Below are positions 6,549 through 58,759 of a stretch of DNA of 64,000 nt, in pieces. The position numbers and the translations under genes were made by a program. Within the stretch, counting starts at the first letter, position 1, and every line of letters begins with the position of its first letter. The notes under the pieces are model-generated. The model was not told the origin of the DNA. It did not search any database and worked only from the letters and a program-made list of their open reading frames with translations. The DNA lies in IMG/VR virus record IMGVR_UViG_3300029959_000012, positions 2,421 through 66,420 of that record; one strand, 5' to 3'. The stretch comes from a virus. Taxonomy: Duplodnaviria > Caudoviricetes.

Positions 6549-8959
6549 TACACCATCACAAATAGTAACATTGCAGAGAGATCTTGAGCGTCTTTTGCAG
6601 TGCCTTCAAGCGACATCAACCGAATTGGATCTCCATACACTACACCATATTTTGCAATATCTAAATCAACAGACGTGCCTTTTGTGGATGTATTGTCAAT
6701 TAATAACCCGGAATAATTGTTTGCAGAAATCACAGGAATTGCGATCCCATAGACACTGGTGGCATCCGGGTTTGTCACCCATGCTGCAACGGTTGCAACT
6801 TTTGTCGTTCCGACATAATCAGCGATTTTCCGGCTTTGACCTGCACCCGTTCCAGATGCAATCCGGATCCACATGTTGTTATAATAGTCATCGACAGCCG
6901 ACGAATCAGACTGCAATGTAATGGTGGTTGCTGCTCCTGCTTGCGCAGTGCCGTTTGCCAGCGCTGCCCCCATTCTGACGTTTACATATCCGTTGCTCGA
7001 TCCATCTACAACCCGGCTACTAAACAATGCACGGACCAATTTCGCTGGCCCTTGTCGCCAAGCCACAGTGTGGCCCAAATCAGATATGATCAAGTCTGCA
7101 TCGGTTGAATCTTCGTAATATCCAGGGATGAGAATTGGCATCTGAACCACGCCTGTTTTTGTGTAACGCAGAGCAGTAACATCCCCAGATAGTGATGCGC
7201 CGGCAATTGTCATTAGATTTGAAGTAATCGCGTCAATCACTCCGTAATATTTCGTCCCACCGATTGTATACTCAAGTCCGTATCCCGGAAACAAAATGGC
7301 GGTACGATCACTAGTCATCGTCAACGTAGATGTGCTGGCAGGCGTTGCAGTAAATGATCCAGATTCTGAAATCCAGTGGTCAGACGAACTCTGCTCATCT
7401 GCAGAAAGAACTCCACCAGCAATAGATAGTCGCGACCCGACTTTTATACCGCCCAGAGTGCTCCCGGATGCAGTGGGAAGAGAATACGGAGTTAAATCTA
7501 CATCCTGGTCGGGCATTGTAATGACACGGGTTGTCCCGGTTGTGACACTACCAGCGTCTATCCGGACTAGTTTTGTTGCGTCGGCAGGATCTTTTACCAA
7601 GGCGGTCGTGTCGGCAACGGGCAACGTAGTTCCACTTGGCAAATTAGTGAGATCACTTCCATCAAGGGCCGGTAGTTTCCCGCCGGTCTGAACTTGAACC
7701 ACGTCACCGGCATCGGTGCCAACATCCAATGCAGCAGCGGTTCCCAATGTCGGTTTGTTAAGGATTTGAGAATCGCCAGTTGCAGAATTCCAGTCAGCGT
7801 TTACATTGACTTCTGCTCCTGATGCGATACCATCGAGTTTGGTTTTGTCGGATCCTGACATCAACCCGGATGCACCAGCAGCGACGGCATTAGCAATGAC
7901 ATCCCCCCCACCGGTTACATGGTCTGTTGCATGGTCAACTGGAGTTCTAGCGTCAGATAATCGAGCATCGTTTCCTTGGCAAAATGTCCCTGCATCTGTC
8001 CCAACCGAACCAGCCTGAAGGATGCCACCAGTTCCGGTAATAATTGGTAATGTGGCGGTCTCACCAATTACTCCAGCATTGGTTATATTACCATGCGAAT
8101 GGCTTGTTGGTGTCCTTGCATCAGTAAACCGTGAGTCATCGCCCGCGGCAATAGTTCCAGTGGTCGTTCCAATCGCAAGACCATCTTTCAGAGTATTTGA
8201 GTTTGCTCCGTCCCACTGCGGTATTTTATTATCGGTATTTGTCGCGGGGCCAATAACATCACCAGTCCCAGAAGCAGTTGAACCGATCGTTATATCGTCA
8301 CCATTATTTGTAACAGTGACATTTGTACCAGCCTTAACTGTTTTAAACTGTAAGTCTACTCCAGATTTCTGTTTAAAGATTGTTCCTGCTCCATCTCCTA
8401 CATTACTTGCAGTATTAGATTCTCCTGGTGCAGCAGCATTAATTACAACATCATTTGTTTCAGAAGAAAGTGTGACATTTGTACCAGCCTTAATTCGCTT
8501 AAATTGAAGATCTACGCCAACTTTAGAACTGAATAATCCTTCACCATCATCTCCAGTTCCAAGATTTGAAGCAGTGTTTACTTCACCGGATCCACCACTA
8601 CCAACAGTAGATCTTTTTACCTTTTTAGTTGCAAAACTATCCTCACTATCCTCAATAATAAAAAGATCATCATCAACGAGTGTTGTCTTTTCAGTGAGAT
8701 CGTGGATTACTGGAAATGTCCCATTAGTTCCTGTAGGTCCAATAGGCCCTTGAATAGTTGGTGTAATATCAAGCCACGATGTAGTTGCCAACTTATACAT
8801 CTGCAGCGACTCTGTTCCCGTGATGTAAACTGGTAAGTTATCAACTAATTCACTTGGATGTGCTACAAAGTAAGCATCGCGAGCAGTAGTATCAACAAAA
8901 ATGTGATCGTCCGATACAACGATTGAACCACCACTATCAATTGAAGGTCTAAACACCAT
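6548..8959 (-). CDS. long tail fibre protein
   Basis: Gly/Thr/Ser-rich, short collagen-like GPIGPTG, internal repeat of NTASNxG...GVDLQFKxxKAGTNVT, and fibre motifs DARLSDARTP and LPTASGSTLGGIKVG. Confidence 0.85.
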   Translation of the reverse strand: MVFRPSIDSGGSIVVSDDHIFVDTTARDAYFVAHPSELVDNLPVYITGTESLQMYKLATTSWLDITPTIQGPIGPTGTNGTFPVIHDLTEKTTLVDDDLFIIEDSEDSFATKKVKRSTVGSGGSGEVNTASNLGTGDDGEGLFSSKVGVDLQFKRIKAGTNVTLSSETNDVVINAAAPGESNTASNVGDGAGTIFKQKSGVDLQFKTVKAGTNVTVTNNGDDITIGSTASGTGDVIGPATNTDNKIPQWDGANSNTLKDGLAIGTTTGTIAAGDDSRFTDARTPTSHSHGNITNAGVIGETATLPIITGTGGILQAGSVGTDAGTFCQGNDARLSDARTPVDHATDHVTGGGDVIANAVAAGASGLMSGSDKTKLDGIASGAEVNVNADWNSATGDSQILNKPTLGTAAALDVGTDAGDVVQVQTGGKLPALDGSDLTNLPSGTTLPVADTTALVKDPADATKLVRIDAGSVTTGTTRVITMPDQDVDLTPYSLPTASGSTLGGIKVGSRLSIAGGVLSADEQSSSDHWISESGSFTATPASTSTLTMTSDRTAILFPGYGLEYTIGGTKYYGVIDAITSNLMTIAGASLSGDVTALRYTKTGVVQMPILIPGYYEDSTDADLIISDLGHTVAWRQGPAKLVRALFSSRVVDGSSNGYVNVRMGAALANGTAQAGAATTITLQSDSSAVDDYYNNMWIRIASGTGAGQSRKIADYVGTTKVATVAAWVTNPDATSVYGIAIPVISANNYSGLLIDNTSTKGTSVDLDIAKYGVVYGDPIRLMSLEGTAKDAQDLSAMLLFVMV

Positions 8960-16329: not shown

Positions 16330-17406
16330 TTATCCTCCGAAAATTATGGAATAAGTGAGGGCGTCGTCTATGGTAGTAGTAATGTCGCCAGTTGTTGCAA
16401 ATTCATTAGCATGTTTTCCATCCAACATATCTGCATCTAGACCACTACCAGTTCCATCTGTTAAATGAGTAAATACTTTTCCACTATCAACATATAAGTA
16501 GGTTCCATCAGTTGTCAGTGATACGCTTGTTGGTTCCGTTGGAAATCCAATTACTAGGGTATCGTGAACTGTTGCATATTCACTAAATAAAGTGTGGATT
16601 GATAGATCTGCAGAACTTAACAAATCATTGGTTAGTAATTTTAGATTTCCACTATCATTGTATAATTGTGGTCCACTATTGCCAATTCTAAATGTTTCAT
16701 TTTGTGTGCCACCACTAGTCGGGAATGATGATAGAGATAGTTCACTATCAATTAGTTTGTGTCCTGTGGTTCCATCAAAAATTGGTATAGTCCCATTCAA
16801 TGATGATAATGGACCTTCAACATAAACATCGTTGATTTGTTTCCACTGTCCATCATCACATGCAAATCTATCTCCTGTTGGTGTTTCAGCACTTATTGAT
16901 TCACCAACTTTGATATAGTGTGCTGGTTCCATATAAGTGCCATTAAATTCGATACTATATCCTACAGGAAAATCAGTGAGATCTACATCTGAACCTGCCC
17001 ACGGTAAAAGGTTAAATGCATTTGTACCATCACCAATTTTAAACCGACCGGTAGGATCATTGGTAGTGTCGTTGAGTTCCAAGCATAATGTATATTTGGG
17101 ATACACAGTATTATTGGAATTCCAATTGCTGGCTGTATCTAATTTACCTTGTAGACGATATGTCCATTTATATAATGAATCATTATAATAGGGAATTTCA
17201 TCATCTACAGGAGCACGGGTATCAGTTGAACGACTTCCAATGCTGCCTGATGTATATGGGATGTCGGCCCACTGTCTAATCCCATCGCCAACCTTGATGT
17301 TGCCAGTATCTACACTTAACGCAACTTCACCATAAGGTATGATTGGATTATATGATAACCAGTTTGCCTCGGTTTCTGGGATTGTTCCATCAACAAATCG
17401 AAACAC
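16330..17406 (-). CDS. tail fibre protein with two Mtd-N/hyaluronidase-N-like domains
   Basis: NWLSYNPIIPYGEVALSVDTGNIKVGDG..W and a second copy ending GRFKIGDGTNAFNLLPW; C-terminal GSGLDADMLDGKH. Confidence 0.8.
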   Translation of the reverse strand: MFRFVDGTIPETEANWLSYNPIIPYGEVALSVDTGNIKVGDGIRQWADIPYTSGSIGSRSTDTRAPVDDEIPYYNDSLYKWTYRLQGKLDTASNWNSNNTVYPKYTLCLELNDTTNDPTGRFKIGDGTNAFNLLPWAGSDVDLTDFPVGYSIEFNGTYMEPAHYIKVGESISAETPTGDRFACDDGQWKQINDVYVEGPLSSLNGTIPIFDGTTGHKLIDSELSLSSFPTSGGTQNETFRIGNSGPQLYNDSGNLKLLTNDLLSSADLSIHTLFSEYATVHDTLVIGFPTEPTSVSLTTDGTYLYVDSGKVFTHLTDGTGSGLDADMLDGKHANEFATTGDITTTIDDALTYSIIFGG

Positions 17407-22429: not shown

Positions 22430-25400
22430 TTAATTTCCACTTACATTGTTTCCGCGTTTTAATTCAGCGATCAATTCTTTGAATGTGTCAGTTATCATTT
22501 GCTTGAGTTGGCTATCTGTTGTTCCACTTACATTTAGACTAACATCCATTTTTTGATTGATGTTGGCGGTCTGTGGAGTTTCCTGTACAGGTTTATTGAC
22601 TTCTGGTAAAACAATGTTGGCTAATGTTGTTTGAGAACCAGTTGTGGTATTGTTACTTCCAAGGTAACCATTCTCAAAGCCATATTTGTTACCGTTGGGA
22701 TCTTCATAATAACTGGTCTTTCCAGTTGTTCCTTGTATCCACCAATTTCCACCACTTGGTTTTTGTGCTTCCATATTTGGCATTCCATTGGAAGTTAATA
22801 CATCGGATACAGATGCTTGTGCTTGAGCCTGCTGAATTTGAGTCTGATAAGTTTGCATTACTTCATTATAAATGCTATTGCGAGTGTCGTTTGATAAACT
22901 TCCTCCAAGTTTATTATCAACCAGTGCATTTTGGAATTGCGCATTCAGATCATTACCTGCTACAAATTTCCAATTCGATGAATCACCAATGATATCAGAT
23001 TGATTGGTTGCAACCTTCTTCTCGTTGAGTAAATCTGCTGGTAATCTCCCATTGAAAGAAGACATTGCATATGTATTTCCAAAGGTTGTTTCATTGGTGG
23101 TTTCCTTCCCTGCAACAAATTGAAGTGAACTTGTGTTTAACTTGTTGTTATAGTCAGCAATGGATCTTGCATTATCATCCATTGCTCTTGTTAACTTTAA
23201 AGTTGCTGTAGTTTGTTTGTTGTAAGCATTAATTGCTTGAGTTTGTGCTGTATCACCTTTCAGGATCTGTCCACTACGAGCAATGTTACTATTAGATGAT
23301 TGCCCAACATCGGTAATTGACATAGTTGCTGCACTTACCGTATCAATTGGTCGTTGAGTAAACAATGATAATGTTTGTTTACCTAATTCCTTTACAGTGT
23401 TAAGTATGCTTGGTAATGATTTTACAAATCCTTCCACTCCAATAAATAAACCAGCAGATTGATTTGCAGCAGAACTTCCCTGTGTTCTATTTATAAAGTC
23501 AGGAACATCGGTAATTGTTCGGAGGATCATCTTGCCAATGTTTGCTGGATCATATAAATTATCTATTAAACTTTTATTCTCAACCTGTATGTTGTTTTCT
23601 CCAAACTGGTTGAGTGGTTTAGTTACATAATCAGATGTAACATTGGATAGTGCCTGTCTTGGAACATCACTAGACCTCAATAACCTGAACATGTCTCCAA
23701 ACATTCCAGGCATAAGTTGAGTTATTGCACTGGTAACTCCTTTATAATTCTTTAAATCTTCTTGAGATTTATTTTCAACTCCCACACTTCCAAAGTAGTT
23801 ACCAGCATCACCCGTTAAAAATGATATTGGTGAATTTGGAAGTTTCTTTCCTTGTTCTGCTGCATTAAATACATCTATTGCTTCAATAACAGCAAGTGGG
23901 AGTGCTGCTTCGTCTGCGGCTCCTGCAAATTTAGTGATCCCACTTAATGCCTTTCCTGCGAATTTTCTTCTGGCTTCAGTGGAACCTTTTTCAGCAACAC
24001 GACCAAGACCGCCAGTTACACCACCGAAAATTGCACCCATCCCAACAATATTTGCAAGTGCGGCCTTTGCTTCTTCTGGACCTTGTGCAAATCCAGTAAG
24101 TGCCATCAAAATATCAGCATTTCCAGCCTTTGGTGCTTCAGTAATAGATCCCTTTAAAGTTGCTGCTGCTAATCCAGTTTTCCCATTCAATTCTGGTAAC
24201 TTGAAATTAAATCTTTGTGATTTAGTATTTGTATACGCATCTTTTAAAGTTCCATCTTCATTATATGCATCTGGGTTGTCATATACATTTACAGTTGACA
24301 AAGATCCCTTGTTAAATGTATTTTTAATTCCTTCAAATGCCTTACTAATCTTTGCAGATCTTGATATATCGCTACCAGTATCTTTCAATGTATTATCAAA
24401 TGCATCCTTGAATTTATTGAAAACTTCCTTTAACTTACCTACTCGTTCTTCGCCAAACAAGCGTCTCATTGCTTCATCAAATGCTTCTTTAATTCGTTCA
24501 GTTCTAGTTTTCTTAACTGGATCATCTTCTCCACTGGTTCTTTTTACTGGAGGCTCTTCACCAAATAACTTACGTGTGATTTCATCAAAGAAACCACGCT
24601 TTGTTGGATCGTCATTAGTTGGTTTCTTGTTAGGATCATCTTCTCCACCAGTTTTTGGTTTTCTTGTTACAGCATCAATTGCTTTACGAATAACTTCAAT
24701 TGGGCTAACACCACTACTAAATCCACCAAGAGTTGGTAATCCCATTTCCATTGCACTAGGTTCAGAACCATTTAAAGCACCACCACTGCCAGATCCATCC
24801 CAATTAGTAACCTCCACACGAATTGCATTTGGAGTTGCTGCATTCTTGAGCACTTTACTGGTGGTTTGATTGAAACCAGCACTGTCTGTTAGGGGTGTTG
24901 CTAACTGCGAGGTATTATATGAAGCATCGGATCTATATACTGTGGAACTGGTGTTGTTATACATCGAGGGTAGAGTTTGTATGCTGTCAACCCCATCTTT
25001 GAATTTGTTTCCACGTTCTAATGCTTCATATGCAGCGAAATTCTTCTTGTTTAGATCGGCTGGTATGACTCGTTCACCACGAGACAACATCGCTGGTATT
25101 GAATCACTAGTTGATGTTCCGGGACCATTCAAGTAATCAGTGCCATTTGCAAAACCACCAGTATTGTTTCCTGTTAATCTATCAATGAACCCTCCTATCA
25201 TTTTAGTTGGTGTTGGAATATCAGTCTTAAATACGTGATCTATTGCGCGACCAATGGCTTCCCAAGCAACTAATACTATAGCAAGATCTAATAATAGTGC
25301 ACCCATTGACAATGCTAAACCATCAGTTGCAACAGTTGCTATTAATATTGCTTTTGACATCGCATTGATATATGCACCGATCTTAAGGAATCCCGCACCT

Positions 25401-28400
25401 ACAGTGAATAATGCGCTGAATCCAGCGGTCAATGGCTGAATCAACAATGAAATCATCAAGAGTTGGGCACCCATTTGAATAAGCCATGGATTGTCAGCCA
25501 CAACTTTCATGATATTGACCATTGCCTTCACTGCGCTGATAATTTCTGGCACTGCAGTTGCAATTGATTGTAGTAAATCTTGTATTGCACCAACACTTTC
25601 TGGAGTTGACAATTCATCGAACAATCCTTGAACTTGCTTCATAATTTTATCACCAAAGTCATTACTACCGAAAACTTTGGCTCCAAGTGAAGCGAACATC
25701 GTGGTGATTGTACCTTGCATTGCAGTGATGTTCTTCCAAGCATCGAGCATGTCCTGTGAACTAACACCCATCTTTTCCATTACTTTGTCTGCTCGATTTG
25801 CACCAACTCCAAAGGCATTGGACATTCCAATATTCTTGAATAAACCTTCGACATCAGTTAATGGTTGAATGATCTTGGTAAGTCCACCTTCTATGGACAT
25901 TACAAGTCCTTGTATGGAGAAGTAAACTCCCATACTGGCCATACTGATAGATGCTGCTTTCCAAGAAATCTCACCAAACATTCCAGCAGCCTTATTAAGT
26001 TTGGACTGTTCAATACCCAATTTAGTAACTTTTTGTGTGGCTGTATCAAAGATTCCAGTCATCTTGGAATTACTAGAAACAACACCATTCAGTAAGTTGC
26101 TTTGTTCTTTCATTACATCGTTGGGATTAAATCCAGCACTGGTGATTCGACGTTGATCATTTGCTGATAATTCATTGAGACTTCCAGTGCTACCAACAGT
26201 AAACATTCTGGAAGTATCAGCCTTCCCGAATCTCTGATCTAGTTGTTCACGTAAAGTTCCTTGTGTGCCTGAAACATCAAGTATATTTTGAAGTTTGCTC
26301 TGGTAATCTTTACCAAAAGCACTAGTCAAACTTGCAATTTGTTCAATTTGAACTTTAAACTGATCATGAGTTTTCATTCCCATTTTAGCAAGTTCAGACT
26401 GGCCCGCTCGTGCAGTAATATCAGCACCAGCGATTTCCATGTTACCATCATATGCGGTTTTTGGAGTGAAGGTAACCATAGAACGTGCTTCTTTTTCTCT
26501 TATAACTCCATTGGAAATATTACTGATATGGCTTGTTATTGCTTCTTCAATTTCACTGAAATTCTTTTTGTTTTCACGTAGAGTATCACGTTCTGCACCA
26601 GTTGAATATCTTCCACCAACAATTGTGTTAACAGTTCCATGCACTGTTCCTTCTACTTCTTTGCGAGTGTGAATATTATCAACTATATCACCAATTTTGT
26701 CAAATATACCACCCATTCCTTGTAAATATTTATTTTCATTAATCTTGCGAGCAATGCCCTTTGGTAACATTCCACCCACTGGAGTTAATTGTTGATTATT
26801 TGGAGCAAATGGAATACCTAGAACATTGTCATTACTGACTCCATTACGATTGTAACCCATTTCCCCACGATAAACACCGAGTTCCAGTTCACTGAATGAT
26901 TTCTGTTGATATGGATTAGTACTTCCAAACATTACATCTTTAGATGGATTAATGTTAATTGGGGTATTTGCACCATGTTGTTTGAGTGCAGTAAACGGAT
27001 CTGCATTTTTACCAAAGCCATCTCTACCTTGTCCAAATATCCTATTAATGGTTGTTCCTAATTGTTGTCCATTTGTAGTAGTGTGAATAAGCGAAGCCAG
27101 TCCTTTGTCAAGTCCGGACAAGTTCTTAACGAGCATTGAAATTTCTTCAGCACTTTTAGAAACAACTGCGTCAAGTCCTTCCATTTGCTTTCCAAGGCTT
27201 ACTGTGGAAGTCCCAAATGCAGTAAAGTGATCCATGGTCATCTGAAGTGGATTCAATGAACTTGCAAATGAGTTACTTACAGCAGATACTTCAGGTAACT
27301 TCTGTGGCCCTTGAATAATATTTCCAAATAAATCAGTTTGTTTAAATCTTGGATCTTTTATATCAGTCCAACTTGCTTTTTGAACTGGATATATCCTTGA
27401 TGACATAAAATCATGGCTATCAGTTGAAACTGCATAACCTACTGTATCGTATCGTTCATTAGTAAATTTCGAAAGATCACCATCACGTCGCTTATTTGCT
27501 TCGACTCTACTTTCCTGCACTGGATTTTTAAACTTATACTCACCTTGAATCAAACCCCTTCTAACTTCTTCAATCAACCTTCCAACTGCCTTTTCCATTG
27601 ATGAAGCCAGCACCTCTGGATCCTTCTGAACATTACCACCTCTACGGGCATTTTGCTCCACCGCATTCAAGAAATTTGGATGCTGAATAACCTGATTCAT
27701 GAATTGTGGGAGTTCCATTCCCGGCTGGTAAGTTTCCTTGATCGGTTGCATCATTGTGGCACTTGGAAGTTTAACACCACGTTTTGGATTGTATTGTGCA
27801 CCATCCATGATACCCTGATTGAGCATCATCAATCCACTAAAGTATGGATTGTTGACTGCTTGTTGCATACCAATAGTTGCTAGCCCACTCAATCTTCTTT
27901 GGCGTTCTGATTCTGGATCTCCACCAAAAGCAAAACCAAGAAGTCCGCCATCCTTAAAAGCAGGCACTGTATTAAAAGTCGATGAAACCTTATTTAACAG
28001 CCCACCACTTTCAAGGGCTTTCCTCGTATTAAATGGCAATATGTAACTACCGGGTTCAAGATATCCAAATCCTTTGTCGTCACGTGGACCACCCGGCGCA
28101 TGAATCTCACTGATACCACTGGAATTAAATGTTGGTAAATTACCAAGTGATGCAAGTTCCCTGTTATCGAGTTTGGCATCACCTAGAGTAAATGCACGAA
28201 GTTTATCAAGTTGCTTTGGGTTTACTCCATGCTGCTTCATGTAACCAGCCGACAACTTCAATTCATCATTAGACAAATAAGCGGGTATGCCACCTTTACC
28301 ACCAGCAGCACGCTTCACCACTAGATCCATGACATTGCCAAATTGTCCACCATCAGCGAAGTATCTAAAGCCTTTTGGATCCTTGGTAAAACTATTTGCA

Positions 28401-31400
28401 ACAACACGACCCTGCATTCCCATGAACCGACTTAATTGTTCATCATTAGCACCAAGGCTCTTCATCTTCCAATTTAATGTGCTAGTTGGTAATCTTGGTG
28501 CATAAAACAAGAATTTGTTATATAGATCTGATTCACTAATGTGCTTATTGATACTTGACTCTAGAGCATTCCCAGATAACAACTTACCAACGCTACCTTC
28601 ATTCTTTACAGTATGTAAGTTTCGTAGTAAATCCCCACCATTTGCAAATGCTCTTACTGGGTGAATATTAAACAAATCATCTGCTATTTTTCTTTCAAAT
28701 GATCCACCGACTGGAGCAATCTTTAATTTTGATTGAATTAATCGTTCATATTCTGCAATTGGTTGTAATGATTCTTTTGGATCAATTCTGGTTCCAAGCA
28801 AATCACCGGGATTAATTATTTGTAATATATTTCCATTTTCTGCGAATTCACTTGCTATGTCTTCACGTGGGGTCATTGATGTAAAACTTGGTAAAATCCC
28901 AAATCCTTTTTTATTAAACTGTTTAAATATATTTTTAGATTTGTCTTCAGATAGTCCAGTAAATAATACAGAAAATGGATCATTTAATGGGTTTCTTGTT
29001 TCAAAATTTAATCGCTCAATAACACTTTCAATTTCTTCAATTTCACTAGGATTAATACCTTGAATATTTTTAAATTTTCTTGGATTAATCATATAACTTG
29101 AAATATTACCATACCCCGGCCCAGTCCAATAATTCAATGCATCTTTTCTTGTCATTGGACCACCATTTGCAAATCCACCTTCATTAAATGGCGTCGGGAT
29201 TGTTGACATCAATTGAGTTCCAAGACCTATGAACCCTGCAATTCCAGCACCCTGAAGCCCCATACTCATAATGTCATTACGATGAGATTTCAACTTGTCA
29301 AGCAATCCATATCGGTGACTAGATCTTGAATTCCCCATGAAGTTTAAATTTGGCAATGAATTAATACCCGGTGTTACTTTAGGAGCCTTCACACTCTTCA
29401 ATAATCGCTGCATACTGAATTGTGGGAGATTCTTACCAACACGAGTAAAATTATCTAATGCTTTAACTTTACCAAATATTCCTGATAAAGTTTTATTTAC
29501 ACTTGGAATTGATTTTGGTTGTTTGGTATTGACTTTGACTTGTGGACCAACTTGAGCATCATAATTTCTCAATGTTGATCTGGGAATTCCAAGTTCCATG
29601 AGACCAACTTCGTTTGATTTTAATAAGTTGCGAACATGTCGTGCCACGGTATTTCCAGTAGTTGGATCTCCTGAAATTTCACCAAATATTGGATTACGTG
29701 TCTGAACTCTTTTTATAGATTTAAGGAATTTATCACGTGCGTCACCGTCATTACCAAATGATTGAACCTTCTTAATGAAGTTATTATATGCAACAGTGCT
29801 GCGTTGTGCATAACCTTCCTTGATATACATCTCCTGTTGTGCTGGATCAATTCCATGACTATCAAGTAATTGCTTCATATCAGCAGTGTGACCACTCAAC
29901 GCCAAGTTCTTAACCAGATTCGATACAATGCTATTTTTGCTTGTATTGAAGTTTTTAGAAAGTTCCTGACTACCAGTAACATGTGGTGCTAATGACTGCT
30001 TAACTAGTTCACTAACATCACCGACTTTTCCATGCATTGTAAAATGTGCAGTGGAATATCGCTTGGCAATCTCGTCAAGGGGTATTCCTGCCAATGTAAG
30101 ATCATTTGCATAGTTCTTTAGAACTTCACCATAAGGAACCTTTACTGGCCCATTAGTGCCTTCCGCATAACCTTCAATTCGTCCACCATTAACAAATTTG
30201 CTTTTATTAATTTTTATAGATGATCTTGGAACTGGTCTTGCCATTTTAGCAATTTCAGTTGGAACTTTTAAAATTCCACTAGCATTTGGTATAGTTGTTG
30301 AAATTCTCCAATCTTTTAATTTATCTAACATTTCAATTGGTAATTTAACTTCATATAAGCCTTTACCTATACCATCTGCATACATTCGTGCAATATCTTC
30401 CCGACTTTCATCAACAAAGTATTGTCCTTTCCCAGATCCAGTTCCACCACGTAATATTCTTATCTGTTTTTCAGTATCTATATATTTTTGTTCAAGGAAT
30501 TTTTCAAATATAACTTGATCTGCACGAATTCGTCTTTCATCAGAATCCAACCCCCCATTCATGAAATTAGCAATTCCGCCGCGTGCATATGCACCGCGAT
30601 ATCCAATGGCTCGTGCTAAAACTTCAGTTGGTTTTTTCCAATAGTCATTATTGTCAAGTTTAAGTCCCTGGCTTCTCAATGCACGCTGAATCTGTCGCTG
30701 TGAACCCATTGATGACTTTGCATAAAATGCGTGTGCCATTTCGTGCATCAACGTTCGTTGAATTTGTTCTGGATCTTTAGTTAGTCTTGTAAATATAGAA
30801 CTTCCCATTGGATCCCAATACCCACGAACAGTTGGGGGTCTATTTAAATAATCGTCATGAGTAAAAAGTATTGGTTTGTTCTTTGTGATAACACTTAATG
30901 CTCGTTGCCAATGTTCTGGCATATTTCCCATAAATTTGTCAAAGTGTTCACCAAATCCCAATACAGCAGGTTTACTGTGAATATTTGGATCATATTGATT
31001 TGCCAGATTATTTACAATAATTTTATTAAATAGTTCAGCAACTTCATTGACTCGTTCAGCATCTTTACCCTTGGTAATCTGTAATGTTTTGTTTCCTCTA
31101 TAATTATCAATTAGATATTCAATTCCTCCACGAGACAACACTTTTCCAAGATTATAACTATTACCATATGAATTTGTCTTGATATTCACACGATTCAATA
31201 ATCCACCATTAGCCAACTGTATATGTCTACGTGGATCAATTTGTCCAGTGTAACTCATATATCGGGCATTATTCCTGATACCTTGTGGTGGAACTGGATC
31301 TCCTATTGCCTTGAACTTTTTAGCCAGATTCACATATAGAGGATCGGTATCTAACCTATTATCATGAGTTACTCCCTTGGGAACCATATGCTGATTCTTA

Positions 31401-31729
31401 TAGACTTTTTTGGCTCGTTCTGCTTTATACTTTAGATCAGCAATCCTTTTATCTTCGGCTTGTTTTGCTAAACTTCTTGCATCATATCCATGACCATACT
31501 GGGCGGCTGATGAAATTTGTGCTGATATATTCTGCGTGATGTTATTACTTGCAATTGGCTTTACACCTTCAACAATCTTACTTACCATTCGCGTGGCTTC
31601 TTCAATCCCACTTACATTTGGCTTATTTGGATTTTGATTATTGATAACAATATTCGAAAGTTCAGGTATGCTGAATTCACCTGATTCAAACATATCCATC
31701 AAATATTGTATGCCTTTTTTTGCGGACAT
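22430..31729 (-). CDS. giant tape-measure-like polyvalent protein (3099 aa) with metallopeptidase and ADP-ribosyltransferase-like modules
   Basis: Position after the tail chaperones; helical tape-measure core with hydrophobic segments (about 25.2-26.1 kb); GPGTSTSDSIPAMLSRGERVI tape-measure motif; HEMAH (30731-30745); ART-like segments. Confidence 0.85.
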   Translation of the reverse strand: MSAKKGIQYLMDMFESGEFSIPELSNIVINNQNPNKPNVSGIEEATRMVSKIVEGVKPIASNNITQNISAQISSAAQYGHGYDARSLAKQAEDKRIADLKYKAERAKKVYKNQHMVPKGVTHDNRLDTDPLYVNLAKKFKAIGDPVPPQGIRNNARYMSYTGQIDPRRHIQLANGGLLNRVNIKTNSYGNSYNLGKVLSRGGIEYLIDNYRGNKTLQITKGKDAERVNEVAELFNKIIVNNLANQYDPNIHSKPAVLGFGEHFDKFMGNMPEHWQRALSVITKNKPILFTHDDYLNRPPTVRGYWDPMGSSIFTRLTKDPEQIQRTLMHEMAHAFYAKSSMGSQRQIQRALRSQGLKLDNNDYWKKPTEVLARAIGYRGAYARGGIANFMNGGLDSDERRIRADQVIFEKFLEQKYIDTEKQIRILRGGTGSGKGQYFVDESREDIARMYADGIGKGLYEVKLPIEMLDKLKDWRISTTIPNASGILKVPTEIAKMARPVPRSSIKINKSKFVNGGRIEGYAEGTNGPVKVPYGEVLKNYANDLTLAGIPLDEIAKRYSTAHFTMHGKVGDVSELVKQSLAPHVTGSQELSKNFNTSKNSIVSNLVKNLALSGHTADMKQLLDSHGIDPAQQEMYIKEGYAQRSTVAYNNFIKKVQSFGNDGDARDKFLKSIKRVQTRNPIFGEISGDPTTGNTVARHVRNLLKSNEVGLMELGIPRSTLRNYDAQVGPQVKVNTKQPKSIPSVNKTLSGIFGKVKALDNFTRVGKNLPQFSMQRLLKSVKAPKVTPGINSLPNLNFMGNSRSSHRYGLLDKLKSHRNDIMSMGLQGAGIAGFIGLGTQLMSTIPTPFNEGGFANGGPMTRKDALNYWTGPGYGNISSYMINPRKFKNIQGINPSEIEEIESVIERLNFETRNPLNDPFSVLFTGLSEDKSKNIFKQFNKKGFGILPSFTSMTPREDIASEFAENGNILQIINPGDLLGTRIDPKESLQPIAEYERLIQSKLKIAPVGGSFERKIADDLFNIHPVRAFANGGDLLRNLHTVKNEGSVGKLLSGNALESSINKHISESDLYNKFLFYAPRLPTSTLNWKMKSLGANDEQLSRFMGMQGRVVANSFTKDPKGFRYFADGGQFGNVMDLVVKRAAGGKGGIPAYLSNDELKLSAGYMKQHGVNPKQLDKLRAFTLGDAKLDNRELASLGNLPTFNSSGISEIHAPGGPRDDKGFGYLEPGSYILPFNTRKALESGGLLNKVSSTFNTVPAFKDGGLLGFAFGGDPESERQRRLSGLATIGMQQAVNNPYFSGLMMLNQGIMDGAQYNPKRGVKLPSATMMQPIKETYQPGMELPQFMNQVIQHPNFLNAVEQNARRGGNVQKDPEVLASSMEKAVGRLIEEVRRGLIQGEYKFKNPVQESRVEANKRRDGDLSKFTNERYDTVGYAVSTDSHDFMSSRIYPVQKASWTDIKDPRFKQTDLFGNIIQGPQKLPEVSAVSNSFASSLNPLQMTMDHFTAFGTSTVSLGKQMEGLDAVVSKSAEEISMLVKNLSGLDKGLASLIHTTTNGQQLGTTINRIFGQGRDGFGKNADPFTALKQHGANTPININPSKDVMFGSTNPYQQKSFSELELGVYRGEMGYNRNGVSNDNVLGIPFAPNNQQLTPVGGMLPKGIARKINENKYLQGMGGIFDKIGDIVDNIHTRKEVEGTVHGTVNTIVGGRYSTGAERDTLRENKKNFSEIEEAITSHISNISNGVIREKEARSMVTFTPKTAYDGNMEIAGADITARAGQSELAKMGMKTHDQFKVQIEQIASLTSAFGKDYQSKLQNILDVSGTQGTLREQLDQRFGKADTSRMFTVGSTGSLNELSANDQRRITSAGFNPNDVMKEQSNLLNGVVSSNSKMTGIFDTATQKVTKLGIEQSKLNKAAGMFGEISWKAASISMASMGVYFSIQGLVMSIEGGLTKIIQPLTDVEGLFKNIGMSNAFGVGANRADKVMEKMGVSSQDMLDAWKNITAMQGTITTMFASLGAKVFGSNDFGDKIMKQVQGLFDELSTPESVGAIQDLLQSIATAVPEIISAVKAMVNIMKVVADNPWLIQMGAQLLMISLLIQPLTAGFSALFTVGAGFLKIGAYINAMSKAILIATVATDGLALSMGALLLDLAIVLVAWEAIGRAIDHVFKTDIPTPTKMIGGFIDRLTGNNTGGFANGTDYLNGPGTSTSDSIPAMLSRGERVIPADLNKKNFAAYEALERGNKFKDGVDSIQTLPSMYNNTSSTVYRSDASYNTSQLATPLTDSAGFNQTTSKVLKNAATPNAIRVEVTNWDGSGSGGALNGSEPSAMEMGLPTLGGFSSGVSPIEVIRKAIDAVTRKPKTGGEDDPNKKPTNDDPTKRGFFDEITRKLFGEEPPVKRTSGEDDPVKKTRTERIKEAFDEAMRRLFGEERVGKLKEVFNKFKDAFDNTLKDTGSDISRSAKISKAFEGIKNTFNKGSLSTVNVYDNPDAYNEDGTLKDAYTNTKSQRFNFKLPELNGKTGLAAATLKGSITEAPKAGNADILMALTGFAQGPEEAKAALANIVGMGAIFGGVTGGLGRVAEKGSTEARRKFAGKALSGITKFAGAADEAALPLAVIEAIDVFNAAEQGKKLPNSPISFLTGDAGNYFGSVGVENKSQEDLKNYKGVTSAITQLMPGMFGDMFRLLRSSDVPRQALSNVTSDYVTKPLNQFGENNIQVENKSLIDNLYDPANIGKMILRTITDVPDFINRTQGSSAANQSAGLFIGVEGFVKSLPSILNTVKELGKQTLSLFTQRPIDTVSAATMSITDVGQSSNSNIARSGQILKGDTAQTQAINAYNKQTTATLKLTRAMDDNARSIADYNNKLNTSSLQFVAGKETTNETTFGNTYAMSSFNGRLPADLLNEKKVATNQSDIIGDSSNWKFVAGNDLNAQFQNALVDNKLGGSLSNDTRNSIYNEVMQTYQTQIQQAQAQASVSDVLTSNGMPNMEAQKPSGGNWWIQGTTGKTSYYEDPNGNKYGFENGYLGSNNTTTGSQTTLANIVLPEVNKPVQETPQTANINQKMDVSLNVSGTTDSQLKQMITDTFKELIAELKRGNNVSGN

Positions 31730-33527: not shown

Positions 33528-34424
33528 TTATGAAAATGTAATTCCTGTGGTGCTTGATGAGGTGCATTTGAAATTTACTGTTCTTTGATATCGTTGACGA
33601 CCACTTGCGCTCCCAGATCCATCAGATAACCACAAATCGTCTAAAGTTATTGTTTGTATTGCTGGTGAAATTCCATCTGGATCATTAAATACAATTACAA
33701 GTGAACCTAATGATGCAGTATTTTTATTGGATGCTAATACTGCCGGTGGATAAGTTCCTGTGGTATCTCCAGTATATGCTACTCTACCAAGTAAGTTACT
33801 TGCATCTTTTGCTGCAAGTTCAAATGAACCTTCAATGGTAAGTTGATCACTTTGTATGATACTTTGTGTATATTCACTACCAATTACATAATCATCTGCT
33901 GATAAAGGTCGTGAAATCTTTAATGTTACTCCTGTTACTTTATAGCCACCAATCACTGCATTATAAAATACTGGAATTGGATCATCATATGATGGACTTG
34001 CGGTGACAGTTACAGAGGTTGTTGCAACAACGTCAGTTCCTACCCAATTGAAATTACATTTTGCAAATTCTCCAGCCTTCATTGATATTTCACAAGAATT
34101 CAATCCTATGCTTCCAAATATAAGTCCTTGGCCATATTCATCGGTGGTGGCTAATTTCTTGTACAGGGTGAAATCATTTGATACTCCTCCTCCAGTTTTG
34201 CCTAACAGACCATGTTCTATAAGATCTGTAAAAATTGCTGGACGATATGCAGCAGAAAATGATCCCGAACATGCAAAAGGCCCGCCCACTATCTTTGGTT
34301 CACCGGCAATATTTAGCGATTTTTCAGAGATCAAATTACGTTGAATTTGGTGTTGTGTATCAGTAATTGGTAAATGTATATATGAACTACCATCTGCTGA
34401 TATTGAAATTCCTCTGACTGCCAT
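33528..34424 (-). CDS. tail tube protein, paralog 2
   Basis: Aligns by eye with 34540-35700 (FYNAV, ISRPLSADDYVIGSEY versus LSRPIDTDDYLIGSEF). Confidence 0.7.
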   Translation of the reverse strand: MAVRGISISADGSSYIHLPITDTQHQIQRNLISEKSLNIAGEPKIVGGPFACSGSFSAAYRPAIFTDLIEHGLLGKTGGGVSNDFTLYKKLATTDEYGQGLIFGSIGLNSCEISMKAGEFAKCNFNWVGTDVVATTSVTVTASPSYDDPIPVFYNAVIGGYKVTGVTLKISRPLSADDYVIGSEYTQSIIQSDQLTIEGSFELAAKDASNLLGRVAYTGDTTGTYPPAVLASNKNTASLGSLVIVFNDPDGISPAIQTITLDDLWLSDGSGSASGRQRYQRTVNFKCTSSSTTGITFS

Positions 34425-34539: not shown

Positions 34540-35700
34540 TCATGCGGCGTTGTTTGCTGGATCGAATACGGCGATTTTGAATTTATCGGTGTTATTGATC
34601 TGTGCTTTCCAAGTGATAGTCTTGTTGAATTTCTGAAGTCCCTGTGCGCTTGCATTTGCTTCGGTAAGTTTACACTTGTTTGCAAGAATATATGTAACAA
34701 CTTTGTCACCGTTGGCACTGTGCAGGAGAATTTCAAGTTGTCCACTTGGAATCTGATTACCAAGGACTGTAGTTGAAGATCCTGAAACTGCACCAAAGTA
34801 TTCAAGCCGTCCCTGATCGAGAGTGTATACGCTGGATGATACTGAACCGGTCATAGTGTTGGAAATCTTATCGTAGTCGGCTGCAGATAGAGTAATGTTA
34901 CCACCAAGGTCGGTGATACCGTTGTAGATGAGATTTGCAAGGAATTCAGATCCGATGAGATAATCGTCGGTATCGATTGGCCGGGAAAGATTGATGCTGA
35001 ACTGTTGACATTTGAATGCTGCTACACTTCCACCTTCTGGAGTCCATTTAAGAACCGCGTTGTAGAACATTGCTGGATCTCCAGCGGGTTCGTTGGTAGA
35101 GTTATATCCAGTTGGGAAAACTTCAACTCTTCGGGCTACCCATGCGCAGTTGATCTGGGCAAACGCTTTTGCCTGAAGTGAAATTTCGGCAGATGATATA
35201 CCTACTCCTCGATAAACGCGAGTGGAACCTACACCTGCAGTAGATTTAGCATTATTATCTACGATTTTAAGTGCAAGGGTTGCTGGAACTACAGATAATT
35301 CATATGCATATCCATTTGAAGTTCCACCAGTTCCACCAGGTCTTGCGTATGCTACCGGAGTCTGATAACCCATGATTCCCATGAGCAGCCCGGATTCGTG
35401 GAAGTCCCAACCTCTAAATGCTCCATTGAAATTACCGGTTAGGTTATCAACACCACCATATATAGATGCGGGTGCTGCCTGATCAGTAGCTTCTTCAAGA
35501 ATAACATCACGCTTGGTTGATTCATCATGAGAAAGCATACGAAGTGTTTTAAATGCCGGAGTTGGGGTTGCACCACCATCAGACTGGTATTTAATGTAAT
35601 CGTTTGCTAGATCATACCCCTTGGCAATATTATAATTATTGACTTCAGTTTCGTCGTACGCTTTTGGGTCAGTTGTGACCGCTAACTGTCTTTGTACCAT
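34540..35700 (-). CDS. major tail tube protein
   Basis: Gene order, a tube-like beta-rich sequence and a GGAGGA Shine-Dalgarno. Confidence 0.75.
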   Translation of the reverse strand: MVQRQLAVTTDPKAYDETEVNNYNIAKGYDLANDYIKYQSDGGATPTPAFKTLRMLSHDESTKRDVILEEATDQAAPASIYGGVDNLTGNFNGAFRGWDFHESGLLMGIMGYQTPVAYARPGGTGGTSNGYAYELSVVPATLALKIVDNNAKSTAGVGSTRVYRGVGISSAEISLQAKAFAQINCAWVARRVEVFPTGYNSTNEPAGDPAMFYNAVLKWTPEGGSVAAFKCQQFSINLSRPIDTDDYLIGSEFLANLIYNGITDLGGNITLSAADYDKISNTMTGSVSSSVYTLDQGRLEYFGAVSGSSTTVLGNQIPSGQLEILLHSANGDKVVTYILANKCKLTEANASAQGLQKFNKTITWKAQINNTDKFKIAVFDPANNAA

Positions 35701-41732: not shown

Positions 41733-43391
41733 TTATCCTTGATTTATTCTTTTTAATGGTTCGCGGGCTGCTGCATCACCAACATCGGTTGGTTGGGTGT
41801 TGGCGCTATGACGAGTTGTTGGATATTTTGGTGATTTAGTAGTAGAGTTGGTTGATATACCATCAGTTTCACCTTTGTCACTACCAAGGCTTTCGCGGGC
41901 CATTGCCTGATCCATTGATTTAGATTGGAGTGGAGTTGGTTTGACAATGTCTTTTCGCTGTTCTTCGGTAAGTGGTTTGAGGCCAATTTCTGCACGTATT
42001 TCTGCGCTAGTGCATTCACCGAGTTCTTTCTTCATGATGGCGTTTTTGTGATTGTCGATAGTGTTGCTGGACATGTCGTAACTAATTGTGCATTCGAGCC
42101 ATTCGACTGGATATTGCGAGTTTATTAGGGATAGACGTTCTTTGATGACTTTGAGTATGACACGTGATAGTTTGGTGGTCATTTGTTCGATCTTGAGTGA
42201 AGCGTAACTATAGATGGCGAGTTCACCCGCGTAATTTGAGGTGGATTGGCCCTTAATGATTGAAACGGGCATGTTTATGGCGCTGAAGATGCTCTCGGTA
42301 GTTTGATCGAGGAGTTCGTTGGCCTGGACGAAGTTGGCATTTTTGGGTTCGACATATTGCAGGGTTGTGGTGTCAAGGTGGACGAACGCGGCATCGGGTG
42401 CGGTGTTTTCGAGGGCTGATTTCTGCATTTCCACAGTGTTGGTTGCGTCTGACACCGCTTTTTGCATACGAACTTCGGGTGTGCCTACATATTGACCGGT
42501 TGAGAAGGATTCTCCTTGGATGCTGCAGTCTAGTTTGGGCATTGCTTTATATCGCCACATTGCATCGTTGGCCATTAATACACGACGATACCATACGGGG
42601 ATTACGGCGCGACGAAGTGGCGAAACTGCGTAGATTCCATAGGTGTTGCGACCCTTGCAATCTTCCACGTATATGGGTGTGTCTCGTAATCGAATGATGA
42701 CGAATTCATCTTTAGAGAGGATTTTTTGGCTTGGAAGTTGCTCATCGAGCACGAGGTAGTTGGCTTCGGTGATTAGGTTGTCATAACCAATTTGGTTCAT
42801 CGCGGGGTTGTGTATGCGATCCGGGTGATCGATGATTGTGACGCGATCATTGGGTAGGACTGTTATGGAGAGGTTTGATCGTATCCATAGGAATAAGTTG
42901 CCGTGGATTTGGAGGATGCTGGCCCACGCTTCGAGCATATCGCTGATGTAAAGTTCAGTACCCAATTTGTTAGCAACATCGACCATTTCAGATGCGAGGG
43001 CTTTCTTGGCCTTGTTGAATGTTATTGTGGTGTCATCATCAACATACAGGCTATTTGGCATGTTGTCCATTTCGCTGTCATTGACGAGGCTGAAGCACTT
43101 GAAGGCTTTGCGAACCATCAGGCTGCTGGCATCGATGCTAGTGGCGATTTCGGGTTCCATTACGTAGAGGTGTTCTAGAAGTTCATCACGGTTGTATCGC
43201 GTCATATCGCTGATGCTTTCAACGAAATTCACGAAGTTGCTTTGGCTGTATTGGGCGGCTAGACTACCTGCTATTGCGGGGTTGATGAAGTCAGCACTGG
43301 ATTGTTTGGAACTTTTGCTGCCATAAGGTGCGCTAAAATGGTGTTTTCGCGACGTTATGGAACGAGGATTGTAATTGGACTTTTTTGACAT
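41733..43391 (-). CDS. portal protein
   Basis: 552 aa between terminase and protease genes; YAVSPLRRA and IFSAINMPVSIIKG portal-type motifs. Confidence 0.8.
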   Translation of the reverse strand: MSKKSNYNPRSITSRKHHFSAPYGSKSSKQSSADFINPAIAGSLAAQYSQSNFVNFVESISDMTRYNRDELLEHLYVMEPEIATSIDASSLMVRKAFKCFSLVNDSEMDNMPNSLYVDDDTTITFNKAKKALASEMVDVANKLGTELYISDMLEAWASILQIHGNLFLWIRSNLSITVLPNDRVTIIDHPDRIHNPAMNQIGYDNLITEANYLVLDEQLPSQKILSKDEFVIIRLRDTPIYVEDCKGRNTYGIYAVSPLRRAVIPVWYRRVLMANDAMWRYKAMPKLDCSIQGESFSTGQYVGTPEVRMQKAVSDATNTVEMQKSALENTAPDAAFVHLDTTTLQYVEPKNANFVQANELLDQTTESIFSAINMPVSIIKGQSTSNYAGELAIYSYASLKIEQMTTKLSRVILKVIKERLSLINSQYPVEWLECTISYDMSSNTIDNHKNAIMKKELGECTSAEIRAEIGLKPLTEEQRKDIVKPTPLQSKSMDQAMARESLGSDKGETDGISTNSTTKSPKYPTTRHSANTQPTDVGDAAAREPLKRINQG

Positions 43392-43680: not shown

Positions 43681-45168
43681 TCAGAACCTTCGCATCATGA
43701 TGACTGGTTTGTAAGTTGCTCCGGTTTCATGACTTGTCAAATACCAGATACAATTTGCTACACAGTCGCTAACGTCCTTGCTTCCATTCCAAGGATGATC
43801 CGGCTTTATTTTTCCAGTCGCGGTCTGTTTCTTGACTAATTGTCTTGCTTCTCGAAGTAGCAATTCGTCGTGAACAACATCGAGTTGATATGGGCCTATT
43901 CCATCGTTAAGTTCAAGCCATTGGGAATATGCATCGATACCTGCTACATGTTTAACAAGTTCTATACCGTGATTTTTTACTTCTTCAAGTGTTTCTAAAT
44001 ACATATCAGTATCAAATATAAATGCTTGAACATGTAGTTTATTGATCCATTCTAAAATGTAATTTCTTATATCAGATGGTTTAATAAACGCTTCGTTTGA
44101 TGCTATTTTTTCAAATCGCTTAACTCCATCAATTATTATGTGTTCTCCTACTCTATAACCAACCGCAATACCAAAACTATCATTACGATATGCAGGATCT
44201 ATTGCCATTACGTGGTGGATGTGGTTATAATCATCTGGTAATTCATCTCGTTCAAATACATTGATCATTGGAGTGAGTCTAACTCCTCCTGGAAACATCA
44301 GTCCACCACTTACTTCTGGCTGATTAGCAAAGTCACGGTAGAAGATATCCATCTTATATTTGTATTCTTCACGAAGAACTTCTTCTGATACTTCTGGTGA
44401 AGGGTTGACTTCCCATGTCTTAAATGAAACAGCAAGGGTTAATTCTCCTTTTTCTGGAGTCATTTCTTCAAGTCCATCATAGTATAATTTATTAATTAGA
44501 CCATCTGTATATTGAACCGATGAAATTGCTACTACTTTGCCGTTTCGACCAAGAGTTTTTGTGGAATTGACAAATTTTGAATATATCATGTCACTTCCCA
44601 TCTTGGAATCTGTCTTTTGAAAAAGGTCAATCTCGTCAAAAAATGCCGCTTTTGCCGTATAACCGGCCGCGGTGGCTGCGTTGGCAGCACGGACCTGCAT
44701 AAAGACGTTTTTTTCTTCACATTCTATTCGATCTTCTTTATATTTTAAAGTCCAATACTTATTGATAAATTCAGATTCTTTTAAGAACCCAGATGCTAAT
44801 CTATATATACCATCTCTAGCCTGATCTGCTCCAGCAGCCACACAACTCACTACGATTGGCTGTATACTTACTAATCCGTAATGTTCTGCTGGGTTTTCAA
44901 GTGATATTAACTCAAAAAACTCGAAACATGCCATGGATGAAGCAAGTAAGGTCTTCCCAGCGCGCTGACCAATTCGAAGCACTAACTTCTTGTATTCTTG
45001 ATTTTGATCACTATACTTGTGTCGATAGAAATCTCTAACAATTTTTTCTTGTGCCGGGTATAGAGTTTTAAATCCTAAAACTTCTTTTATAAAATAAACA
45101 GGATCGTTTCTGCATTTATTGACTTCCTTTGAAAATTCAATACTTTCAGCAACAGAGTCAAATTTCAT
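43681..45168 (-). CDS. terL: terminase large subunit
   Basis: Walker A GQRAGKT, Walker B AFFDEID, nuclease AIDPAYRND and KDVSDCVA. Confidence 0.93.
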   Translation of the reverse strand: MKFDSVAESIEFSKEVNKCRNDPVYFIKEVLGFKTLYPAQEKIVRDFYRHKYSDQNQEYKKLVLRIGQRAGKTLLASSMACFEFFELISLENPAEHYGLVSIQPIVVSCVAAGADQARDGIYRLASGFLKESEFINKYWTLKYKEDRIECEEKNVFMQVRAANAATAAGYTAKAAFFDEIDLFQKTDSKMGSDMIYSKFVNSTKTLGRNGKVVAISSVQYTDGLINKLYYDGLEEMTPEKGELTLAVSFKTWEVNPSPEVSEEVLREEYKYKMDIFYRDFANQPEVSGGLMFPGGVRLTPMINVFERDELPDDYNHIHHVMAIDPAYRNDSFGIAVGYRVGEHIIIDGVKRFEKIASNEAFIKPSDIRNYILEWINKLHVQAFIFDTDMYLETLEEVKNHGIELVKHVAGIDAYSQWLELNDGIGPYQLDVVHDELLLREARQLVKKQTATGKIKPDHPWNGSKDVSDCVANCIWYLTSHETGATYKPVIMMRRF

Positions 45169-53994: not shown

Positions 53995-54228
53995 TCATTC
54001 GGTGTAACCGCCTGGTTCGCATTCGAGACAACAATAGAGTTGATCTTTTTGTAGGGTGGCGAAGGGTTTTTGACAGGTGGTGCATGTTCGTTTATATTTG
54101 GAGGTGTGGAGTAGGCTGTTATTGGGGCCTGCGCAATACTTGGAACAGAAGATGGCGCGATAACGGCGGATTTCGTTGGGTTGGGTGGCGAATATGGTGT
54201 GACAGTGTTCACATCGTCGGTGTAACAT
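53995..54228 (-). CDS. zinc-finger protein (TRASH/MYM-like repeats)
   Basis: CEHC...FCSKYC and CTTC...YCCLEC. Confidence 0.7.
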   Translation of the reverse strand: MLHRRCEHCHTIFATQPNEIRRYRAIFCSKYCAGPNNSLLHTSKYKRTCTTCQKPFATLQKDQLYCCLECEPGGYTE

Positions 54229-54311
54229 AACTGGTTAGGTTGGTGTTAGGAGTATATATGTATGGTGGTAATGTGTTGGTATTTTATAATATGTGGGTGT
54301 AATTATATTGT

Positions 54312-55358: not shown

Positions 55359-55381
55359 TTTCTTCAAATATATAGGAAAAA

Positions 55382-57232: not shown

Positions 57233-57253
57233 AAACAAGGGATCACAATCATC

Positions 57254-58752: not shown

Positions 58753-58759
58753 ACCAAAT

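Follow-up and report, generated by a model that had tools for sequence, protein, structure and literature searches.

We analysed a 64,000-nucleotide stretch of DNA from a tailed virus (hereafter the window; positions 2,421 to 66,420 of IMG/VR record IMGVR_UViG_3300029959_000012) and found that a giant open reading frame (ORF) on its minus strand encodes a tail tape measure protein, P0001, in which a ruler and a membrane-type core appear to be preceded by about 1260 residues of modular cargo. In this reading, to which we give a probability of roughly 0.6, the cargo is a series of exchangeable cassettes bounded by the short motif [F/Y]-A-x-G-G, including one with a zincin-like metallopeptidase fold and one that resembles ADP-ribosyltransferases (ARTs) of the Alt type and has no catalytic arginine. 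Tape measure proteins are usually viewed as rulers and channel formers; by analogy with known systems, the ruler here probably doubles as an enzyme carrier.

A tape measure protein divided into modules by a short motif

The 3099 codons of the ORF run without stops or frame breaks, and we identify the product as the tape measure protein of the tail by its position, by a match to the PHROG tape-measure family phrog_23013 (residues 2185–2304, E = 3.8e-5) and by the hydrophobic segments that hydropathy places at residues 2089–2164. The gene follows those of the portal, the capsid and two tail-tube proteins and precedes the distal tail genes, an order that is identical around the tape measure in five relatives. 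An earlier note on this DNA, made from its letters, had already called the 3099-residue product a tape measure protein, and the single uninterrupted ORF, the gene position and the PHROG match all agree with that assignment; the motifs that the note quoted are likewise all found in P0001 at the positions given for them.

The first ~1262 residues of P0001 are split into eight modules by the motif, whose copies, in the looser form [F/Y/L]-A/x-x-G-G, lie at residues 172, 389, 512, 848/853, 1028, 1124, 1239 and 1258. The layout of the protein, read from its N-terminus, is as follows:

22430–31729, minus strand: whole tape measure gene (P0001, 3099 residues), a single uninterrupted ORF, identified by PHROG match and gene order
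31202–31729, minus strand: module 1, residues 1–176, ending in LANGG; no family match, a weak homolog in the L019 tape measure
30551–31201, minus strand: module 2, residues 177–393, putative zincin-like HExxH metallopeptidase fold (HExxH conservation, AlphaFold2, Foldseek, VIA)
30182–30550, minus strand: module 3, residues 394–516, an orphan with homologs only in two other tape measures
29159–30181, minus strand: module 4, residues 517–857, conserved N-terminal domain of the tape measure family (BLAST across relatives)
28634–29158, minus strand: module 5, residues 858–1032, Alt/C3-type ART-like (hhalign, ESM atlas, homolog in P0003)
28346–28633, minus strand: module 6, residues 1033–1128, with FANGG on one side and FADGG on the other; homologs in P0004/L022 and P0006
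27944–28345, minus strand: modules 7–8, residues 1129–1262, short units with the last F-x-x-GG at residues 1239 and 1258 (BLAST; comparison with lambda gpH 733–775)
25940–27943, minus strand: presumed ruler region, residues 1263–1930, poorly conserved; assigned by exclusion, ahead of the conserved core
25040–25939, minus strand: conserved tape measure core, residues 1931–2230 (alignment A4 with five relatives, 30–42% identical)

Here and below, the proteins and loci of relatives are cited by handles beginning with P and L. The earlier estimate of about 1150 residues ahead of the core proved too low, as the motif-bounded modules extend to residue 1262 and the membrane-type core begins only at about residue 1930. 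Between them, the presumed ruler region shows a weak match to P0004/L022 at its end only.

In its strict form, [FY]AxGG, the motif was observed 49 times in 12 non-redundant related giant tape measures, where shuffling leads one to expect 1.67 (an enrichment of about 29-fold), and five times in P0001 itself against an expected 0.11. The ends of homology blocks sit within a few residues of motif copies. The motif is also found beyond the cargo region: behind the hydrophobic segments of P0001, at residues 2191–2223, GGFANGT (25139–25159) is followed by GPGTSTSDSIPAMLSRGERVIP (25061–25126), and the lambda gene H sequence, which we inspected, encodes FATGG at residue 733 and YATGG at residue 778, followed by G-E-F-V. 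Modules 7–8 resemble this C-terminal element of tape measures, which has the form 'G-x-G-T-S-x-S-D-S-I-P-A ... G-E-x-V'. Because lambda gpH carries copies and the same element stands after the P0001 core, the sequences identify [F/Y]-A-x-G-G as a general tape measure feature, which in P0001 has been multiplied and fences the modules.

In lambda, gpH loses a piece of ~14 kDa from its Gly-rich C-terminal region to become gpH*, and residues ~690–817 are not resolved in the structure (PMC12617516). Both FATGG and YATGG fall within this ~690–817 part of the cleaved C-terminal fragment.

A module with a zincin-like metallopeptidase fold

Module 2 contains HEMAH at residues 329–333 (30731–30745, minus strand) and KKPTEVLARA at residue 365, in which Glu369 of PTEVLARA (30608–30631; model helix 191–204) is the putative third metal ligand. 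The two histidines and the glutamate of HExxH are invariant in five tape-measure modules that are only 18–39% identical, among them the copy at 794–1002 of P0002, and four of the five retain the downstream glutamate within an E-x-[LF]-[AF] helix (it is present in P0002, P0003 and L018, and L025 is ambiguous).

An AlphaFold2 (AF2) model of the module, computed with the five-module alignment as input, reached a mean predicted local distance difference test score (pLDDT) of 63.9 and a predicted template modelling score of 0.64, with a core at a pLDDT of 80–93. It consists of a helix, three strands, the HExxH helix (model positions 144–162) and the later helix with Glu369, an order of elements that matches the zincin topology as described in PMC5512222. 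Among the Foldseek matches listed for this model, nearly all are zinc metallopeptidases (anthrax lethal factor, Wss1, IrrE/PprI, PPEP-1 and deuterolysin), and VIA-align superposed it on IrrE with a Z of 7.1. At the sequence level the module matches phrog_87, annotated as 'metallo-protease', with E = 0.0024. Pfam searches gave only sub-threshold matches to LPD1, SprT-like and DUF6782, whether run on module 2, on the whole of P0001 or on each of its modules, and the ESM atlas returned unnamed viral clusters only. Owing to the uniform list of structural matches and the conserved ligands, a zincin fold is the clear reading of the model, and we hold it to be highly probable.

A module resembling Alt-type ADP-ribosyltransferases

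Module 5 carries YWTGPGYGNIS at residue 867 (29099–29131), VLFTG (28955–28969), FTSMT at residue 949 (28871–28885) and EYE at residue 993 (28745–28753). An hhalign comparison with the Alt family, represented by nine aligned domains of T4-like phages, gave P = 4.5e-4 and a score of 31.1, where 60 column shuffles used as a control scored 13.3 ± 2.5 with a maximum of 19.4; the other P0001 modules gave P values of 0.24–0.76 against the same alignment. The similarity is collinear over four motif blocks:

Block 1: Y-W-T-G-P-G-Y-G-N-I in module 5, Y-x-G-S-G-Y-x-D-I-N in the Alt family
Block 2: V-L-F-T-G in module 5, L-Y-R-G/S in the Alt family
Block 3: F-T-S-M-T in module 5, F-V-S-T-S in the Alt family
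Block 4: E-Y-E in module 5, E-x-E in the Alt family

The sole homolog of module 5, at 545–709 of P0003, is 44% identical, and between the two copies the Ser, the Thr and both Glu residues are invariant (F-T-S-M-T and E-Y-E correspond to F-M-S-A-T and E-K-E in P0003). The nearest ESM-atlas clusters were PF03496 (0.93, with 172 shared features), a weak lead because the recognition value is low. On these comparisons we consider an Alt/C3-type ART-like fold likely for module 5, a judgement that concerns the fold.

The module is also bracketed at the nucleotide level by an exact 15-nucleotide direct repeat, ATTTGCAAATGGTGG, found in a repeat search (family D8):

29160–29174, minus strand: left copy, encoding (x)FANGG
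28635–28649, minus strand: right copy

The copies lie 525 nucleotides, or 175 codons, apart, which fits an in-frame cassette.

Further members were sought in several ways. Profile A1 of the ART module had no match in the T4 genome, tblastn of the module against 50,697 phage records found nothing, and the same was true of homolog searches with the ART region at tape-measure length, with the ART alignment at domain length and of an IMG/VR scan with the ART alignment. No meaningful match came from sequence searches of the PDB, for which the first 1200 residues of P0001 and the profiles A1 and A2 served as queries.

Modules are shuffled among related tape measures

When the first 1200 residues of P0001 were compared by HMMER with 1.84 billion representative proteins, only seven matches were obtained, five of which are giant proteins of 1635–4862 residues in which different modules are matched at different positions. 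The contigs of the relatives (13–131 kb, five independent assemblies) share the gene order around the giant tape measure. A scan of IMG/VR with the six-sequence core alignment A4 retrieved eight further loci; the same scan with a single core sequence retrieved nothing. Module-by-module BLAST then shows that, among 12 tape measures, the subset with a given module differs from module to module, so that the family appears as a mosaic with the modules in shuffled order.

The relatives also contain enzyme domains of families that are readily recognized. GNAT acetyltransferase domains lie above the Pfam cut-off in the pre-ruler region of P0003, L018, L019 and L023, as do HD phosphohydrolase domains in that of P0007 and L019, and these domains are, at the level of sequence, the strongest evidence that the pre-ruler region serves as an enzyme carrier in this tape measure family. 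With them, 'enzyme cargo on the tape measure' would be a property of the whole family, with several unrelated enzymatic domains per polypeptide: zincin and ART-like in P0001, and GNAT, HD, zincin and ART-like in the relatives.

Since the window comes from a metagenome-derived viral contig, the long ORF might instead be an assembly chimera, or an artefactual fusion of genes for a polyvalent protein and a tape measure. The five independent assemblies have the same gene order and a giant tape measure with modules ahead of the same core, the eight further loci contain related giant tape measures, several with homologous modules, every homolog of modules 2, 3, 5 and 6 is part of a tape measure, and the ORF itself is free of stops and frame breaks. 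The same architecture in independent assemblies, together with homologous modules elsewhere, makes a chimera, which the earlier note had named as something that would undo its proposal, very unlikely and close to negligible.

The earlier note had proposed a second, short ART-like module from ILRGG, GQYF, IARMYA and GLYEVK, which lie at residues 425–462 (30361–30457) in module 3. We dropped this candidate, as neither Alt nor module 5 is significantly similar to module 3 (P = 0.05–0.24), which stands as an orphan, with homologs in L020 (528–634, 49% identical) and P0004 (26%); its alignment found no homolog at 67–231 residues, the sole lengths searched. Module 4 is N-terminal, or nearly so, in L021 (46% identical), P0002, P0007, P0003 and L024, and P0005 is a fragment of it; it ends in a Gly/hydrophobic stretch followed by FNEGG-FANGG. 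Homologs of module 6 are found in P0004/L022 (57% identical) and P0006 (47%), with the motif at both ends of each. In the family searches, modules 1, 3, 6 and 7 showed no enzymatic signature.

Comparison with known systems

An enzyme on a tape measure has a precedent in gp96 of Thermus phage P23-45, a 5002-residue tape measure whose N-terminal ~1100 residues are the virion RNA polymerase, which, its authors propose, is active while still bound to the pore of the tape measure (Chaban et al. 2024, PMC10770324). Like P0001, gp96 is a giant tape measure with an N-terminal enzyme, in that case one that is in the virion and is proposed to act at entry, and it also has metallopeptidase and membrane domains. 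Unlike P0001, it has a single large polymerase in place of a string of small cassettes open to exchange, and it is not reported to contain ART-like, GNAT or HD modules.

Polyvalent proteins, in which MPTase, ART and GNAT domains are typical (PMC5512222, PMC7824862), resemble P0001 in joining unrelated enzyme domains in one polypeptide. In the description of Iyer et al. 2017 (PMC5512222), a zincin MPTase is their commonest domain, ART and GNAT are among the cargo, and the proteins are predicted to be delivered with the DNA and possibly to process themselves. They are packaged in the head or transferred by type IV secretion systems; PMC5512222, from which the word 'tape' is absent, does not present them as tape measures, whereas the carrier in P0001 is one. 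Their ARTs also belong to the Tox-ART-HYD2 clade, with Alt/VIP2-type domains stated to be absent from genuine polyvalent proteins (PMC5512222), whereas module 5 resembles the Alt type.

T4 Alt (PF03496, R-S-E) shares with module 5 a collinear Y-x-G-x-G-Y-x-x-I, a pre-catalytic strand, F-x-S-x-[ST] and E-x-E, a similarity that is detectable only at the profile–profile level (P = 4.5e-4). It is an injected virion protein that belongs to the head and forms no part of a tape measure, and it has the catalytic arginine (L-Y-R-G/S) where module 5 has L-F-T-G. Lambda gpH has FATGG/YATGG and then G-E-F-V, comparable to GGFANGT...SRGERVIP after the P0001 core and to the inter-module motifs; its two motif copies are near the C-terminus, and it has no enzyme modules. 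That tape measures can contain wall-degrading domains is well documented (PMC1796659, PMC12617516). In T5 pb2 and mycobacteriophage TM4 Tmp, as in P0001, an enzyme domain is embedded in the tape measure, and theirs act at entry; they are wall hydrolases located within the protein or C-terminally, whereas the P0001 family has zincin and ART-like and, in relatives, GNAT and HD domains in N-terminal positions. In the literature searched, no fusion of a tape measure with an ART is described. Enzymes on tape measures are thus already known from P23-45 gp96 and are framed by the polyvalent proteins; the set of zincin and Arg-less ART-like cassettes would, from its sequence, be a new variation.

Interpretation and alternatives

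By analogy with P23-45 gp96, the cargo would accompany the tape measure, first in the particle and then out of the tail at infection; by analogy with injected T4 Alt and with polyvalent proteins (PMC5512222), it would then act on host targets. The zincin may act on the chain itself, as a processing enzyme, or on proteins of the host. The motif [F/Y]-A-x-G-G could be where the chain is processed, perhaps through cutting by the zincin in those proteins that have one, or could act as a flexible joint; the DNA encoding it could also provide microhomology for the exchange of cassettes. A bolder version joins these steps into a polyprotein-style vehicle, in which F-A-x-G-G is cut by the zincin or another protease so that a strain-specific cocktail of ART-like, GNAT and HD enzymes is released at entry, with the motif DNA as a recombination handle and methanogen viruses as possible owners; we regard this combination as doubtful.

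Several results weigh against a cargo of active, delivered enzymes. The arginine of the catalytic R-S-E triad is replaced by Thr in module 5 and by Ser (A-L-Y-S-G) in P0003, the PF03496 hidden Markov model had no match to module 5 at E ≤ 10, and AF2, given the two-sequence alignment, reached a pLDDT of 40 with only the N-terminal helices at any confidence. What stands of the Alt/C2-type transferase proposed earlier is therefore a weak but real profile similarity in which S-x-T and E-x-E are kept, with the arginine and the Pfam match missing; because of the absent arginine the activity is doubtful, and module 5 is not to be classed with the canonical R-S-E enzymes; it may have diverged as an enzyme, may bind or hydrolyse NAD, or may have no activity at all. 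For module 2, Foldseek gave no match at E ≤ 0.001 (best E 0.04) and VIA-align a Z of 7.1 with a root-mean-square deviation of 4.6 over 129 residues against lethal factor 574–753, both of which are middling. PF18818 (MPTase-PolyVal) had no match to it at E ≤ 10, so that of the earlier description, a metallopeptidase as in the MPTase domains of polyvalent proteins, the zincin fold and the invariant HExxH are retained, and the module is better placed in the zincin superfamily than in the Pfam family MPTase-PolyVal. As for the motif, the precise cut site in gpH and the protease are not known (PMC12617516), and its role is thus not established even in lambda. The HExxH module occurs in only 5 of the 12 tape measures, the motif in all 12, and since most relatives have the motif without the zincin and lambda has it without a peptidase, cleavage in cis by the zincin cannot be its general role. 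The presence of the N-terminal modules in the virion, their ejection, their cleavage and their activity are in turn steps that we infer from analogous systems. Folded domains of 20 kDa, in several copies, would not obviously fit the lumen of a tail tube, and the N-terminus of a tape measure is its head-proximal end and would exit last.

These points leave room for other explanations of the same architecture. The modules could serve assembly or be decayed remnants, trimmed at F-A-x-G-G during tail maturation, as gpH is trimmed to gpH*, so that they never reach the host and the zincin is a maturation protease. The motif does come from the region where lambda gpH is cut, the ART-like module has no catalytic arginine, and modules 1, 3, 6 and 7 have no enzymatic signature. 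Yet the relatives retain GNAT and HD domains above Pfam cut-offs, HExxH and ExE are conserved in otherwise divergent copies, the zincin is absent from most relatives, and the cut lambda fragment remains in the particle (PMC12617516), which together make trimming without delivery unlikely.

Alternatively, the enzymes could act on the cell envelope, with the metallopeptidase breaching a protein layer or wall peptides in the manner of the muralytic domains of T5 pb2 and TM4 Tmp. Such wall-degrading tape measures are documented (PMC1796659, PMC12617516), and a protease would suit hosts with protein sheaths, one relative being binned with Methanospirillum. The structural neighbours of module 2, however, are intracellular or substrate-specific zincins (IrrE, Wss1, lethal factor) rather than wall peptidases of the M23/LytM kind, the cofactors or targets required by GNAT, HD and ART-type domains are cytoplasmic, and the N-terminal position implies late exit, and we therefore place this explanation lower still, as distinctly improbable.

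If the reading as a tape measure with exchangeable enzyme cassettes is true, tape measures would be a general and evolvable platform for effector delivery, parallel to the polyvalent proteins packaged in heads, and the unexplained Gly-rich cleavage region of lambda gpH would gain a testable role. P23-45 gp96 is one experimental case of an enzyme on a tape measure N-terminus; here there would be a whole family with interchangeable cassettes at that place.

The host

The earlier note had spoken of an archaeal virus, which the data do not establish. The relatives were binned in one Methanospirillum metagenome-assembled genome (MAG) and in two bacterial ones, a Syntrophaceae MAG and a Saccharibacteria MAG, and this binning suggests anaerobic consortia. 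A search for the large terminase in 201 genomes from the order to which the Methanospirillum MAG belongs located it in only one, the MAG itself. Sigma-70-like promoters are not enriched (83 vs 86 ± 8) and terminator-like hairpins mildly so (20 vs 10.5 ± 3), and these scans decide for neither a bacterial nor an archaeal host. An archaeal host for the window virus is possible. Upstream of the portal gene in L004, at 1–497, there is a match to Pfam MJ0330_N, a family named for a Methanocaldococcus jannaschii protein, which as a sequence match is a possible archaeal link for that relative only.

Other features of the window and its relatives

The window covers most of the 66,420-base record, which is judged ~46% complete; the relatives are 127–143 kb long, and the source is an uncultured tailed virus of ~130 kb. 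Its minus strand holds a late module of the classical tailed-virus type, in which the tape measure gene is accompanied by:

43681–45168, minus strand: large terminase, with distant similarity to cyanophage terminases
41733–43391, minus strand: portal, in the late module
34540–35700 and 33528–34424, minus strand: two adjacent tail-tube paralogs with Phage_tube_2 domains
Downstream of the tape measure gene, minus strand: tail-tip/fibre genes with matches to Mtd_N, PKD and DUF2341 domains

The number of Phage_tube_2 tail-tube genes in relatives is two or three, with three in L002, and in L005 an IS605-type OrfB/TnpB gene (Cas12f1-like_TNB; 6749–7888) lies between the tail-tube and tape measure genes. 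The Mtd_N-domain tail protein of the window is 358 residues long (16330–17406, minus strand). In Bordetella phage BPP-1, diversity-generating retroelements act on Mtd, the major tropism determinant; the window ORFs that were scanned showed no reverse transcriptase.

The C-terminal third of P0001 contains an internal duplication at 24498–24542 and 24612–24656 (minus strand), made of two ~38-codon units that follow the pattern 'T/S-G-G/E-E-D-D-P-x-K-K ... L-F-G-E-E'; at the corresponding place, relatives carry long Asp/Lys-rich stretches. The 4862-residue P0004 (L004 10001–24589) has a second tape-measure-like half behind its first core, with long V-x-N-I/V-S repeats and Gly/Ser/Ala-rich repeats.

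At ~54000–64000 of the window the strand composition flips sharply, with the GC skew going from +0.32 to −0.36 and the AT skew from −0.1 to +0.25, and there are few ORFs of at least 100 residues; this is probably an early region of small plus-strand genes. Genes of replication and nucleotide metabolism in the window encode a dCMP/cytidine deaminase (846–1223), a calcineurin-like phosphoesterase (4014–4751) and a three-domain ATP-dependent DNA ligase (48529–49911).

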